DNA of 42,447 nt from an uncultured Helcococcus sp. (lineage in GTDB: Bacteria; Bacillota; Clostridia; Tissierellales; Peptoniphilaceae): positions 1 to 42,447 of the forward strand of contig CAMXYZ010000001.1 in NCBI GenBank assembly GCA_947253305.1, in the 5' to 3' direction. This document shows positions 16,898 to 42,447 of the stretch, one piece after another (position 1 is the first letter of the stretch; each line of letters opens with the position of its first letter). The notes beneath the pieces were generated by a model that was not told the origin of the DNA, did not search any database, and was given only the letters and a program-made list of their open reading frames with translations. Made by a program: the position numbers and the translations under genes.

Positions 16898-16904
16898 ATA
16901 TACA

Positions 16905-17010
16905 AATCTTCAGGGCAGGGTGTGATTCCCTACCGGCGGTAAAGTCCGCGAGCGAAAGCAGAATCGGTGTAATTCCGATACCGACAGTATAGTCTGGATG
17001 GAAGAAGATA
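16905..17010 (+). ncRNA. FMN riboswitch (RFN element)
   Basis: ATCTTCAGGGCAGGGTGTGATTCCCTACCGGCGGT...CCGACAGTATAGTCTGGATGGAAGAAGAT matches the RFN consensus; lies upstream of ribU. Confidence 0.97.
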
Positions 17011-17054
17011 ATATATAATTGGTGCTATTTATGTACCATGATATGTATAATCAC

Positions 17055-17124: not shown

Positions 17125-17727
17125 ATGGAATTAACAAAAAAGGAAAAAGTTGTGAATGTTTCAAAACTTGTAAAGATATCAATGTTGTCAGCTGCGGCGG
17201 GAGTGTTAGCGCTATTTAAGTTTCCAATACCAATTGCACCACCATTCATGACAGTGGATTTTGGAGATGTAGCAACACTGATAAGTGGATTTGCATTAGG
17301 ACCAATATCAGGAATAATAACCGTAGTGATGAAAAATATTATAAATCTATTTTTAAATGGAACAACAACAGCTTATGTTGGTGAATTATCCAATACAATT
17401 GTAGGTTGCGTATTTGTAGGTTCTGCTTCATTTATTTACAGCTACAAAAAAACTAAGAAGAGAGCAGCTATAGGATTAATCGTAGGTGTAATCTTAATGA
17501 CATTGGTAGCAACATTATCAAACTATTATGTGATATTTCCACTTTATGCAAAAGCAATGGGGATTGAGTTGATAGAATTTACAAAGATGATGCCACCAAA
17601 TAATTATATACATAGTTTTTTAGATTTAATACTATTTGCTATAGTGCCATTTAATTTAGTTAAAGGTACACTAAATGCTCTGGTTACATTATTAATTTAT
17701 AAGAAAATTTCACAATTATTAAAATAA
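17125..17727 (+). CDS. ribU: ECF transporter S component, riboflavin-specific
   Basis: FPIPIAPPFMTVDFGDV, FALGP, VGELSN, PFNLVKG; about 6 TM segments; under an FMN riboswitch. Confidence 0.9.
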   Translation: MELTKKEKVVNVSKLVKISMLSAAAGVLALFKFPIPIAPPFMTVDFGDVATLISGFALGPISGIITVVMKNIINLFLNGTTTAYVGELSNTIVGCVFVGSASFIYSYKKTKKRAAIGLIVGVILMTLVATLSNYYVIFPLYAKAMGIELIEFTKMMPPNNYIHSFLDLILFAIVPFNLVKGTLNALVTLLIYKKISQLLK

Positions 17728-19156: not shown

Positions 19157-19241
19157 TGGTGCGGATAAAAGGAGTCGAACCTTCACATCCGAAGATACTA
19201 GATCCTAAGTCTAGCGCGTCTGCCAATTCCGCCATATCCGC
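19157..19241 (-). tRNA. tRNA-Leu(TAG)
   Basis: Reverse complement GCGGATATGGCGGAATTGGCAGACGCG-CTAGA CT TAG GA TCTAG-variable arm-GGTTCGACTCC...CCGCACCA. Confidence 0.96.
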
Positions 19242-19242
19242 A

Positions 19243-19318
19243 TGGGGTGAGTAATGGGATTTGAACCCACGATACCAGGAGCCACAATCCTGTGCCTTAC
19301 CACTTGGCTATACCCACC
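19243..19318 (-). tRNA. tRNA-His(GTG)
   Basis: Reverse complement GGTGGGTATAGCCAAGTGGTAAGGCA-CAGGA TT GTG GC TCCTG...GGTTCAAATCC...CACCCCA; encoded G-1 and C73. Confidence 0.96.
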
Positions 19319-39715: not shown

Positions 39716-40105
39716 ATGAGTAATCAATATTACGGTACAGGAAGAAGAAAAACATCTGTAGCAAGAGTAAGACTTTTACCAGGACAAGGTACATTCACAA
39801 TTAATGGAAAAGATATTGAAGAGTACTTTGGTTATGAAACATTAAAAGAAGCAGCAAAATCTCCTTTAAAATTAACAGAAAAAGAAGGACAATTCGATGT
39901 AATTGTTAATGTTAAAGGTGGTGGATTTACTGGACAGGCTGGAGCAATTAGACACGGTGTGTCAAGAGCTCTATTAGAATTTGACGAAGAATTAAAACCA
40001 GTATTAAAGAGAGCAGGATTCTTAACAAGAGATTCAAGAAAGAAAGAAAGAATGAAACCTGGTCTAAAGAAAGCAAGAAAAGCTTCACAATTTTCAAAGA
40101 GATAA
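39716..40105 (+). CDS. rpsI: 30S ribosomal protein S9
   Basis: [31 protein letters not shown]. Confidence 0.98.
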
Positions 40106-40119
40106 AAACAATTTATTAC

Positions 40120-40155
40120 AAGCGCTTTTTGGTTTATACCAACGAGTGCTTTTTT
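40120..40155 (+). terminator. Intrinsic terminator after rpsI
   Basis: AAGCGCTTTTTGGT/ACCAACGAGTGCTT imperfect stem plus T run. Confidence 0.75.
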
Positions 40156-40201
40156 ATTGTACAAAATGAAAATAGAAAAATAAATAATTATAAAAATATA
40201 T

Positions 40202-40230
40202 TTGCAATATGTAAAATTTGATGTTATAAT
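40202..40230 (+). promoter_or_regulatory. Sigma-A promoter of the metal ATPase leader
   Basis: TTGCAA-17bp-TATAAT with extended -10 TG. Confidence 0.8.
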
Positions 40231-40277
40231 AAATTTGTAAAAACTTAATAGTTTATTTATTTTAGTTTTTGAAATAA

Positions 40278-40373
40278 ATACAAATCTGAGCAAGCGGTAG
40301 AATAATCTATGCAGCCCGGCTACGAAAGATGTAGCAGCAGAAAGCGAATTTAAAGCGCACTGTGAGACAGTAA
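40278..40373 (+). ncRNA. NiCo (czcD)-class metal-sensing riboswitch aptamer, variant
   Basis: Blocks CTGAGCAAGC / TGCAGCCCGGC / GCAGCAG / CTGTGAGACAG in NiCo order; stems GTAGA/TCTAT, GCTAC/GTAGC, CAG/CTG; lies upstream of a metal exporter. Confidence 0.82.
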
Positions 40374-40400
40374 CAACTGTCTTATAGTGCGCATTTTTTT
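40355..40400 (+). terminator. Riboswitch-overlapping terminator (attenuator)
   Basis: 17-bp stem GCGCACTGTGAGACAGT/ACTGTCTTATAGTGCGC, 4-nt loop, T7; its 5' arm is the aptamer's 3' strand. Confidence 0.9.
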
Positions 40401-40430
40401 ATAGATAATTATTTTAATAGGAGGGGGACG

Positions 40431-42263
40431 ATGTTAGAATATATAATTAAACAAAGGCAAGGAAGATATTTAGTATATGGAATAATATTCATTATCATTG
40501 GATTTGTATTGTCCTATTATGGAATAGAATTAAGTAGATATGCATTTTATCTTTCAATTTATTTTTTAGGATATTATGCAACAATAAACGCGGTAGTTGA
40601 CACAATTGAAAATAGAAAATTTAATGTCGACTTATTAATGATTTTGGCGGCACTTGGTGCGGTATTAATAAATTATGAGTCAGAAGGTGCAATGCTATTA
40701 CTAATATTTGCGGGTGCAGAGGTATTAGAAGATGTAGTATCTCAAAAATCAAGTAATGCAATATCAGAATTGATGAAGCAAGTTCCAGATGAAGCAAAAT
40801 TACTTCAGACAGATGGAAGTACAATTACTGTTAAGACAGAAGAGTTAAAAATAGGCGATATAGTTTTAGTTTCAAAAGGAGACCAAATTCCAATTGATGG
40901 ATATAGTGATAGAGATATAGTTGTAAATGAAGCATCCTTGACAGGTGAATCAGAACCAGTTACTAAGGAATCTGGCGAGGAGGTATTTGCGGGTACTATT
41001 AATGAAGGAGATTCATTTAGATTAGAAGTAAGTAAAGAAAAGAAAGACACAGTATTTTCAAATATTATAAGAATGGTTGAAGAAGCTCAAAGTAAACCTT
41101 CTAATAGAGAAAGATTTATAAATAGACTTGAATCTAAATATGTAACCGTAGTTTTAATAGCTGTTCCTATTTTTATAGCTGTATTATACTTCTTAAGATC
41201 ATATAGCTTTAATGAAGCATTTTATAGAGGAATGGTATTGTTAACAGTAGCTAGTCCATGTGCTTTAGTTGCATCAGCAACACCAGCAACATTAAGTGCA
41301 ATTTCTAATAGTGCGAAAAATGGTATTTTATTTAAAGATGCACAAGCATTAGAGTTGATGAAAGATTTAAAATATTTAGCAACAGATAAGACTGGAACTT
41401 TGACTTATGGTGAATTTGAAGTAGTTGATTATGAAATACCTGAAGATATACTTAAAAAAGTAGTTTATATTGAAAACAACTCAAATCATCCAATTGCAAA
41501 GAGTATAGTTAAAAAATTTAGCGATGTAGATTTATCAGATGTAGAAGATAGTAATATCGAAGAAATTGCCGGAGCAGGCTTAAAAATGGGAGATATTATA
41601 ATTGGTAAGCCAGGTATATTTAAAGATTATAAAGATCCAAATGGATACTTATCAATGGGAGAAAGTGTAAATACAAAATCTATCGTTGCTGAAGGAAATA
41701 CAATTGTTGGATGTATTCTTTTAGTGGATACAATTAGAGAATCAGCTAAGGAAGCGATTAATAATTTCAAAAAAGAAGACGTTTTAGTGGAAATGTTAAC
41801 TGGTGACAATGAAGCTGTTGCTACTAAAGTGGCAGAAAAACTTGGATTAGAACATTATAGATATAATTGTTATCCAGAAGATAAGATGAAATTTATTGAA
41901 GAAAAGCAAGCTCAAAATCATATCGTTGCTATGATTGGAGATGGTATTAATGATGCTCCAGCTTTAGCTAATGCAGATATAGGAATAGGAATGGGTGATG
42001 GGAGCTCCATAGCAATGGAATCTTCAGATATGGTTGTAGTGAAAAATAATCTTAATAAAATATACTTCACTTATGGATTGAGTAAAAAATTAAGTAAAAT
42101 AGTAAAACAAAATATTTTTTTCTCAGTATCTGTTATAATAACATTGATAATAGTTAATATATTAGGAATATTAGATTTACCTTCAGGAGTAGTTTTCCAC
42201 GAGGGTTCAACTATACTAGTTATATTAAATGGATTGAGATTATTGTACTATAAAGGCGAATAA
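40431..42263 (+). CDS. Heavy-metal-translocating P-type ATPase, P1B-4 subgroup (PfeT/FrvA/CoaT-like)
   Basis: TGES, SPC in the TM segment, DKTGT, HP, TGDN, GDGIND, HEGST; no N-terminal CxxC metal-binding domain. Confidence 0.92.
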   Translation: MLEYIIKQRQGRYLVYGIIFIIIGFVLSYYGIELSRYAFYLSIYFLGYYATINAVVDTIENRKFNVDLLMILAALGAVLINYESEGAMLLLIFAGAEVLEDVVSQKSSNAISELMKQVPDEAKLLQTDGSTITVKTEELKIGDIVLVSKGDQIPIDGYSDRDIVVNEASLTGESEPVTKESGEEVFAGTINEGDSFRLEVSKEKKDTVFSNIIRMVEEAQSKPSNRERFINRLESKYVTVVLIAVPIFIAVLYFLRSYSFNEAFYRGMVLLTVASPCALVASATPATLSAISNSAKNGILFKDAQALELMKDLKYLATDKTGTLTYGEFEVVDYEIPEDILKKVVYIENNSNHPIAKSIVKKFSDVDLSDVEDSNIEEIAGAGLKMGDIIIGKPGIFKDYKDPNGYLSMGESVNTKSIVAEGNTIVGCILLVDTIRESAKEAINNFKKEDVLVEMLTGDNEAVATKVAEKLGLEHYRYNCYPEDKMKFIEEKQAQNHIVAMIGDGINDAPALANADIGIGMGDGSSIAMESSDMVVVKNNLNKIYFTYGLSKKLSKIVKQNIFFSVSVIITLIIVNILGILDLPSGVVFHEGSTILVILNGLRLLYYKGE

Positions 42264-42289
42264 TCTATATAAGCTATTATTCAATATAA

Positions 42290-42308
42290 TATATCCGTTT
42301 TGGGTATA
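42290..42308. promoter_or_regulatory. Candidate CsoR/CstR-family operator
   Basis: TATATCC-GTTTT-GGGTATA, one mismatch from the ATACCC-N5-GGGTAT pseudo-palindrome, directly after TATAAT. Confidence 0.5.
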
Positions 42309-42339
42309 AGTAATTTATACAAAATTAAAAGGAGATTAT

Positions 42340-42401
42340 ATGAAAGTAGTAGTAATTGGAGGGATAGCTGCAGGGGCATCTATCGCATCAAAAGCAAAAA
42401 G
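42340..42401 (+). CDS. FAD-dependent pyridine nucleotide-disulfide oxidoreductase (CoA-disulfide reductase/NADH oxidase-like), N-terminal fragment
   Basis: AGGAG RBS; MKVVVIGGIAAGASIASKAK is a GR2-type FAD-binding start; truncated by the adapter. Confidence 0.75.
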
Positions 42402-42447
42402 CTGTCTCTTATACACATCTGACGCTGCCGACGACTCCTTACGTGTA
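42402..42447 (-). other. Illumina Nextera i5 adapter remnant (technical artifact)
   Basis: CTGTCTCTTATACACATCT + GACGCTGCCGACGA + index CTCCTTAC + GTGTA. Confidence 0.99.

Follow-up and report, generated by a model that had tools for sequence, protein, structure and literature searches.

The window analysed here, i.e. the whole stretch of 42,447 nucleotides of contig CAMXYZ010000001.1 (GenBank assembly GCA_947253305.1) from an uncultured Helcococcus sp., carries near its 3' end a gene for a predicted heavy-metal exporter of the P1B-4 type, and the leader of this gene contains a riboswitch aptamer of the NiCo-AnGGAG family followed by an intrinsic terminator (Table 1). Upstream of the leader lies rpsI, which ends at 40105 (Pfam Ribosomal_S9, E 5.7e-50) and is succeeded by a terminator-like hairpin (-17.2 kcal/mol, z -5.10, matched by none of 200 shuffles in the fold of 40106-40165) which sets the ribosomal-protein operon apart from the riboswitch unit. 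Scanned against Rfam at the curated cut-offs (cmscan), the window yields four matches, namely an FMN riboswitch, two tRNAs and RF03164, the NiCo-AnGGAG aptamer, the latter with 67.8 bits (E 3.3e-13) compared to a gathering score of 64.5 bits and over the full length of the model (1-89 of its 89 positions). Rescanning 40150-40450 with permissive settings returned the same match (E 2.4e-15) and nothing else notable. In the competition within the clan RF03164 was kept while one overlapping match of lower score, presumably the standard NiCo family RF02683 (cut-off 37 bits), was suppressed. The first-pass annotation of this DNA had described a four-way-junction aptamer of the NiCo/czcD type whose junction bases are altered. 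This is clearly borne out, while the limits given for it (40278-40373) exceed the match by a few bases. Its suggestion of a candidate new system, in contrast, has to be abandoned as the variant is already catalogued as RF03164 and the window, scoring above the curated cut-off, is a further member of that family. The comparison with covariance models which it had proposed, including inspection of the junction columns, finds the letters CAaGC and GaGAC among the uppercase consensus letters of RF03164.

The aptamer is followed by a terminator of 17 base pairs (8 of them G-C) with a loop of 4 nt and the tail ATTTTTTTAT. This fold (-29.8 kcal/mol, z -7.86) is matched by none of 200 shuffles, and it is the sole terminator-like site within 40000-42447 (1 found versus 0.6 +/- 0.8 expected). 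The 3' strands of P4 and P1, with the J4/1 strand between them, make up its 5' arm (40355-40371), which thus overlaps the aptamer by 16 nt (40355-40370). Owing to these shared nucleotides the two folds are mutually exclusive, which implies a ligand-ON logic as had been read from the sequence at the outset. Folding of 40283-40402 gives -42.3 kcal/mol for the terminator conformer versus -17.7 kcal/mol for a conformer in which P1 is enforced. The far higher stability of the former points to termination as the default state, such that an aptamer stabilised by its ligand would give read-through. An identical switching strand is described for standard NiCo in the accessible part of a preprint (bioRxiv 10.1101/2025.08.02.668262).

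Relatives of the element were collected by scanning genome contigs with a junction pattern accepting A or G at two positions. The scan provided at least 119 loci, and all counts reported below refer to the matches listed. Sixty-six of them possess the 5' junction motif and constitute true aptamers, while 53 loci, mostly from high-GC genomes, lack this motif and were regarded as matches by chance. Designating each class by its base in J1/2 and its base in J4/1, the 66 true aptamers divide into 10 A/A, 5 A/G and 51 G/G, whereas the combination G/A does not occur. The A/A class, which includes the window, is represented by Helcococcus kunzii, H. massiliensis, two Facklamia, Streptococcus minor, S. 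moroccensis, a Streptococcus metagenome-assembled genome (MAG), Marinilactibacillus psychrotolerans, an Amphibacillus MAG and a Bacilli MAG. The collection of homologues proposed beforehand hence gives 10 loci with an A at both positions. Adding the window, there are 11 A/A aptamers; being related, they are not independent observations and probably go back to about five lineages. Twenty of the true aptamers (10 A/A, 5 G/G, 5 A/G) were rescanned against Rfam. RF03164 turned out to be the best family for all 10 A/A aptamers (56.8-73.8 bits) and RF02683 for all five G/G aptamers, while the A/G aptamers are split between RF03164 (three) and RF02683 (two). Among the A/A aptamers only that of H. kunzii scores above the RF03164 cut-off; the remaining nine (L012, L016, L056, L061, L076, L085, L088, L104 and L107) reach 56.8-62.6 bits compared to the required 64.5 bits. 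Under an annotation relying on the Rfam cut-offs they would therefore pass for ordinary NiCo, and the altered bases at the metal site would go unnoticed.

An alignment of 64 distinct aptamers including that of the window, chosen solely by their junction motifs, reveals compensatory changes in 9 of the 17 predicted pairs, which indicates that the helices are under selection. Within P2 and P3, both partners of a pair are changed in as many as 31 of the 64 aptamers. P1 and the proximal part of P4 are invariant, in part since the scan pattern fixed those letters. P1 is indeed as short as had been remarked in the first-pass annotation, comprising three Watson-Crick pairs plus C40291-G40366. It is, however, not a peculiarity of the variant, which is ruled out by the presence of the same CUG/CAG P1 in standard-class aptamers of Carnobacteriaceae. 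A terminator overlapping J4/1 is present in all 11 A/A aptamers. In four of them (L016, L056, L104 and L107) the A equivalent to nucleotide 82 of the standard aptamer is bulged out of the terminator, so that its conservation is not explained by terminator pairing. A simple terminator test was passed by 24 of the 51 G/G and three of the five A/G aptamers, but this test is crude and says nothing firm on either class.

The five mixed A/G aptamers (L020, L040, L070, L081 and L092) combine the variant A in J1/2 with the standard G in J4/1. Three of them precede transporters of the cation diffusion facilitator (CDF) family and two precede an ATPase, one of these as a fragment whose sequence matches the ATPase. 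That the reverse mix is found in none of the 66 true aptamers suggests that J1/2 changed first.

The standard NiCo consensus, which we obtained via L022 as a strong member of RF02683 (72.6 bits), reads cuGAgCAGGC ... GCCGGGCC ... GGCAgCaG ... CuGcGGGACag, and that of RF03164 reads cuGAaCAAGC ... AGCCgGGcc ... CAgCaG ... CuGuGAGACag. According to the accessible sections of a simulation study based on the structure 4RUM (bioRxiv 10.1101/2025.08.02.668262), the two-metal pocket of standard NiCo is lined by N7 of G41, G42, G82 and G83, while a third metal site is formed by N7 of A9 and of G40, the latter being engaged in a sheared pair with A12. We mapped the window onto the nucleotide numbering of that study through the RF02683 and RF03164 consensus lines. 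The six equivalents of the metal-contacting nucleotides (40289, 40317, 40318, 40319, 40365 and 40366) are A, C, G, G, A and G. This spelling fits the family name AnGGAG, which would appear to record the letters at precisely these positions; if so, we infer that the discoverers of the family had already noted these features. Compared to the standard class, A9, G41, G42 and G83 are thus kept in the window, while G40, G82 and the G13-C39 pair are not. The latter pair is annotated in RF02683 and closes P2 at the junction; in the window it is lost as A40293 faces C40316. An A at the position equivalent to 40293 is present in 16 of the 64 aligned aptamers, while a C at the position of G40 occurs in five of the 10 A/A loci compared to none of the 56 other true aptamers. 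The five A/A loci in question form, together with the window, a subgroup spelling A-C-G-G-A-G and stem from Helcococcus kunzii, the two Facklamia, the Amphibacillus MAG and the Bacilli MAG. The equivalents of G41 and G42 are invariant in all 64 aptamers, both having been demanded by the scan pattern.

Three of the four departures from the consensus which had been listed beforehand hence stand (A40293, C40317 and A40365), and two of them indeed concern metal-ligand positions. The fourth, GCAgCAG, is none since the RF02683 consensus itself reads GGCAgCaG. A new Watson-Crick pair between C40317 and G40337, which had also been envisaged, was likewise rejected: within P4, G40337 forms a G.U pair with U40363, a G at its position is the RF02683 consensus letter and occurs in 34 of the 51 G/G loci, and of the 64 aligned aptamers 46 have G.U and 18 have A-U at the equivalent pair.

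In the aptamer of the Listeria plasmid pLM5578 (L120, position 464-572: GCAGCUGGG) the equivalent of C39 is a U. There the closing pair of P2 is G.U instead of lost, which represents a milder form of the effect that the A of the variant has on this pair.

Table 1. Features of the leader and of the gene following it in the window
Feature	Position	Strand	Basis
Terminator-like hairpin with U run after rpsI	40120-40155	+	fold of 40106-40165
Candidate sigma-70-type promoter TTGCAA-17-TATAAT, TG at 40222-40223	40202-40230	+	10/12 matches
NiCo-AnGGAG aptamer, four-way junction, 88 nt	40283-40370	+	Rfam covariance model
P1	40286-40288 with 40368-40370, plus C40291-G40366	+	covariance-model alignment and constrained fold
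P2	40294-40301 with 40306-40315	+	covariance-model alignment and constrained fold
P3	40319-40323 with 40331-40335	+	covariance-model alignment and constrained fold
P4	40337-40340 and 40344-40346 with 40356-40358 and 40360-40363	+	covariance-model alignment and constrained fold
A9 equivalent (site-3 metal ligand in standard NiCo), retained	40289	+	consensus mapping
Variant base 1: A for G13 (CAGGC to CAAGC)	40293	+	uppercase A, unpaired in RF03164
Variant base 2: C for G40 (site-3 N7 ligand)	40317	+	lower-case g in RF03164 consensus
G41 and G42 equivalents (two-metal-pocket N7 ligands), retained	40318-40319	+	consensus mapping
G of GCAgCAG, ordinary base; G.U with U40363 in P4	40337	+	RF02683 consensus
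J4/1 strand GAGA	40364-40367	+	uppercase GAGAC in RF03164 versus GGGAC in RF02683
Variant base 3: A for G82 (two-metal-pocket N7 ligand)	40365	+	uppercase RF03164 consensus letter
G83 equivalent, retained	40366	+	consensus mapping
Intrinsic terminator, 17-bp stem 40355-40392 and seven U 40394-40400	40355-40400	+	fold and terminator scan
Ribosome-binding site AGGAGG, 6 nt ahead of ATG 40431	40419-40424	+	direct sequence reading
P1B-4-type heavy-metal P-type ATPase, 610 aa	40431-42263	+	Pfam, NCBIfam, structure relatives, motifs

The gene following the leader starts 61 nt after the aptamer. Both its ribosome-binding site and the identity of its product as a P1B-4 exporter with SPC and HEGST motifs had been correctly recognised in the first-pass annotation. 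Pfam assigns to the product the domains E1-E2_ATPase (1.6e-42), Hydrolase (1.8e-26) and Hydrolase_3, and the same scan finds no HMA domain in its 610 amino acids. The NCBIfam model for heavy-metal P-type ATPases, TIGR01525, is matched from residue 66 onwards with 541.8 bits (cut-off 346.25). The catalytic motifs TGES (171-174), DKTGT (319-323) and GDGIND (503-508) are present, and so are SPC (275-277, within VASPCAL) and HEGST (590-594). In the accessible passages of a study on these pumps (PMC8880997), the P1B-4 subclass is defined by two motifs, SPC on M4 and HEGxT on M6, and by having no classical heavy-metal-binding domain. Judged by these features, the gene product is a P1B-4-type metal exporter, its export activity being predicted. 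The best relative of solved structure is sCoaT from Sulfitobacter (PDB 7qbz, 7qc0; E 1.1e-98 to 7qbz over residues 19-608), the structures of CopA and ZntA following at about 1e-78. Like the ATPase of the window, sCoaT lacks a classical heavy-metal-binding domain, and its ASPCAL and HEGST motifs align with those of the latter, but it is a distant relative with many substitutions in the alignment. No riboswitch control of sCoaT is known to us. Among named proteins, those of Helcococcus kunzii (66% identity) and H. ovis (63%) come nearest, and in H. massiliensis the gene order rpsI, aptamer, ATPase matches that of the window.

The genes behind the other aptamers were analysed on the basis of 65 downstream open reading frames, 47 of which were put through Pfam, the other 18 being G/G loci with short reading frames or a duplicate locus; one further locus has no downstream reading frame. 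At the A/A loci all five full-length reading frames encode P1B-like ATPases of about 607-617 amino acids, and all five fragmentary ones match N-termini of the ATPase family found in the window (E 2.4e-9 to 4.8e-39). This family is consequently located downstream at 10 of 10 A/A loci. Behind the 32 G/G aptamers tested, we found nine ATPases of this family, 12 P-type ATPases with Cation_ATPase_N, eight CDF transporters and three other genes. Sixteen ATPases were aligned. SPC is present in all of them and HEGST in 15, including all copies associated with G/G aptamers; the exception, which reads HELST, belongs to the A/A locus L016. The identity to the ATPase of the window amounts to 53-63% irrespective of the aptamer class. 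In a tree of these 16 sequences, calculated by a quick method and containing one long branch (L016), the A/A label requires two changes and mostly follows taxonomy. In Aerococcaceae, related pumps stand behind both classes (L060, G/G; L076, A/A). Neither an ATPase clade nor a metal site peculiar to the variant was found: the motifs fail to separate the classes and the tree mostly tracks taxonomy.

On these grounds we assign a probability of roughly 0.8 to the interpretation that the leader (about 40238-40430) acts on transcription as an ON riboswitch of the NiCo-AnGGAG family, controls the P1B-4 ATPase and responds to the same signal as standard NiCo. Transcription would start at a promoter of its own, downstream of the rpsI terminator. 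With no ligand bound, the terminator stem and its U7 tail would form and transcription would halt ahead of the ATPase gene. A divalent transition metal accommodated in the four-way junction would hold P4, J4/1 and P1 within the aptamer and thereby sequester the 5' arm of the terminator, upon which the polymerase would read through and the exporter would be produced. As to the variant bases, the exchange of G13 by A would open the junction-closing pair of P2, the exchange of G82 by A would place an adenine in the two-metal pocket and that of G40 by C, restricted to the subgroup including the window, would remove one ligand of the third site. Since variant and standard aptamers control one ATPase family, with SPC and HEGST present in the standard-class copies, the same kind of metal signal is favoured. 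We infer that this signal would still be an excess of a metal of the Fe2+/Co2+/Ni2+ type, probably with altered stoichiometry or threshold. For standard czcD aptamers Kd values of about 0.5-2 uM towards Fe2+, Co2+ and Ni2+ are given in the available portion of Xu and Cotruvo 2022 (PMC9389577). The altered core could shift threshold, stoichiometry or preference, above all in the C40 subgroup with its third site poorer by one ligand.

Several observations weigh against this interpretation. The RF03164 match exceeds the cut-off by just 3.3 bits and P4 is interrupted by an AAA/A internal loop (three non-canonical pairs in the covariance-model alignment), both of which, like the C at the variable position where the consensus has a lower-case g, set the window apart from its family. 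Of the six bases published as metal contacts, two are altered (G40 to C, G82 to A) so that a standard metal response is not to be taken for granted. The promoter postulated in the first-pass annotation does exist as a sequence, yet promoter-like sites are no commoner than in shuffles (18 found versus 15.5 +/- 4.3 expected), which renders the assignment, made by position alone, plausible only. The scan pattern fixed most of the junction letters, and the counts obtained with it are neither a census nor natural frequencies. In addition, the shared gene association could partly reflect common descent instead of function as the classes largely track taxonomy in the tree. Finally, the literature that could be searched yielded no paper naming NiCo-AnGGAG and no binding or read-through data for RF03164 or for the RNA of the window; the main text of Weinberg 2017 (NAR) mentions NiCo once and AnGGAG never, and the passages found in reviews of the Breaker laboratory contain no discussion of NiCo variants.

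Some of these features are also what one would expect of a decayed or ligand-independent leader, acting as a constitutive attenuator hairpin or being controlled by some other factor. Apart from the two changed ligand positions and the score barely above the family cut-off, the stability of the terminator, which exceeds that of the aptamer conformer by about 25 kcal/mol, agrees with this notion, and a precedent exists in the Sensei RNA of Haemophilus ducreyi. This NiCo look-alike was claimed to be specific for Fe2+ in a paper since retracted and, according to the accessible parts of PMC9389577, was shown to be unresponsive to Fe2+ or Co2+. By its description it resembles the variant of the window in being a NiCo-like RNA with diverged bases at the metal site for which a different metal preference was proposed, and its case calls for caution against reading a new specificity from altered bases alone. 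A decayed element, however, would not hold its junction strands invariant over a spread such as that observed here, where the variant letters, the compensated helices, the overlapping terminator and the downstream pump recur in 10 other species covering Helcococcus, Facklamia, Streptococcus, Marinilactibacillus, Amphibacillus and a Bacilli MAG. We therefore regard decay as highly improbable.

A different conclusion would be that A13, C40 and A82 retune the junction to another metal, e.g. Mn2+, Zn2+ or Cd2+, which is then exported by the ATPase. Both G40 and G82 are published N7 ligands, of the third site and of the two-metal pocket, respectively. Moreover, A13 and A82 co-occur, as is evident from the class counts, C40 is confined to the A/A class, and A82 persists also in aptamers whose terminator leaves it as a bulge, which suggests that selection acts on the aptamer. 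The pump itself would be compatible with such a change, the cargo range of P1B-4 ATPases being the broadest among the P1B subclasses as stated in the accessible text of PMC8880997. Yet the ATPases behind A/A and G/G aptamers belong to one family, the lone departure from its motifs, HELST, is found within the A/A class, and Aerococcaceae employ related pumps behind both. The discoverers of RF03164 reportedly found no alternative ligand. Furthermore, an N7 is present in adenine as well, and the standard class already employs one adenine, A9, as a metal ligand as described in the accessible part of bioRxiv 10.1101/2025.08.02.668262. This renders a switch to another metal distinctly unlikely. It is also possible, although we consider it doubtful, that the A-C-G-G-A-G subgroup represents a natural two-site derivative of NiCo which differs from the standard class in metal preference, affinity or cooperativity. 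If true, it would constitute a natural experiment on how RNA discriminates Fe2+ from Co2+ and Ni2+ and would provide the first ligand profile assigned to an unvalidated Rfam family.

The assignment as an ON switch responding to a NiCo-type signal can be viewed in the light of the known systems which come closest to the window. With RF03164 (clan CL00122) it shares the uppercase consensus letters CAAGC and GAGAC, the four helices round the junction and a cation-transporter gene downstream. With the standard class RF02683 (NiCo/czcD; crystal structure 4RUM; responsive to Fe2+, Co2+ and Ni2+) it has in common the fold, the helix order, the ON logic and a regulated P1B-4 ATPase family, and in both the terminator competes for P4, J4/1 and P1, i.e. 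for one switching strand. Whether iron or rather cobalt and nickel are sensed by standard NiCo/czcD within the cell is still debated, as is apparent from the accessible parts of Chem Rev 2024 (PMC11672702) and PMC9389577. Natural variants at metal-contacting bases which still control the same pump represent useful test cases for this debate, and the window, at an otherwise ordinary locus, offers a compact and well-defined example in which one gene follows an 88-nt aptamer and a clean terminator.

A counterpart on a plasmid is encoded by pLM5578, whose ATPase (WP_003728476.1) is 58.2% identical to that of the window over 100% of its length and is, as in the window, preceded by an aptamer of the NiCo clan about 130 nt upstream. 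In contrast to the RF03164 aptamer of the window, this aptamer is of the standard class (RF02683, 60.1 bits), and the gene is plasmid-borne between transposase genes whereas the copy of the window follows rpsI. A riboswitch-regulated P1B4 ATPase from a Listeria plasmid, possibly the one of pLM5578, rescues iron toxicity in B. subtilis according to the available portion of Xu and Cotruvo 2022 (PMC9389577). Altogether, a pump of 58-59% identity is present on 164 plasmid records, 72 of them from Listeria and 60 from Enterococcus, and all three plasmid loci fetched (L120-L122, including pLM5578) harbour an RF02683 aptamer upstream (60.1-63.7 bits).

The standard NiCo aptamer and its P1B-4 ATPase together behave like a mobile module. 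Near-identical copies are present in Jeotgalibaca, Enterococcus malodoratus and Marinilactibacillus piezotolerans (L031, L042, L077; duplicate aptamer, branches of at most 0.0034), Desemzia carries it twice (L024/L025), and IS6 transposase genes adjoin it on pLM5578 and pLGUG1. On plasmid pL21581-2 of Carnobacterium maltaromaticum (L121), the NiCo-controlled ATPase adjoins a gene annotated as iron export ABC transporter permease FetB, a neighbour which fits a role of the module in iron efflux.

Elsewhere in the window, the last 46 bases (42402-42447) look like Illumina Nextera adapter sequence left untrimmed, with the mosaic end of the transposase ahead of an adapter tail. These bases interrupt an open reading frame starting with ATG 42340, and the end of the contig is thus probably an assembly artefact. 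Two tandem tRNA genes (64.8 and 58.7 bits) are located on the minus strand at 19160-19317, just before a cluster of ribosomal-protein genes on the plus strand. The FMN riboswitch (RF00050, 117.1 bits) at 16902-17013 lies directly 5' of a gene for the S component of an ECF transporter (17125-17727; Pfam ECF_trnsprt, E 5.9e-34), with which it probably forms a riboflavin uptake unit.

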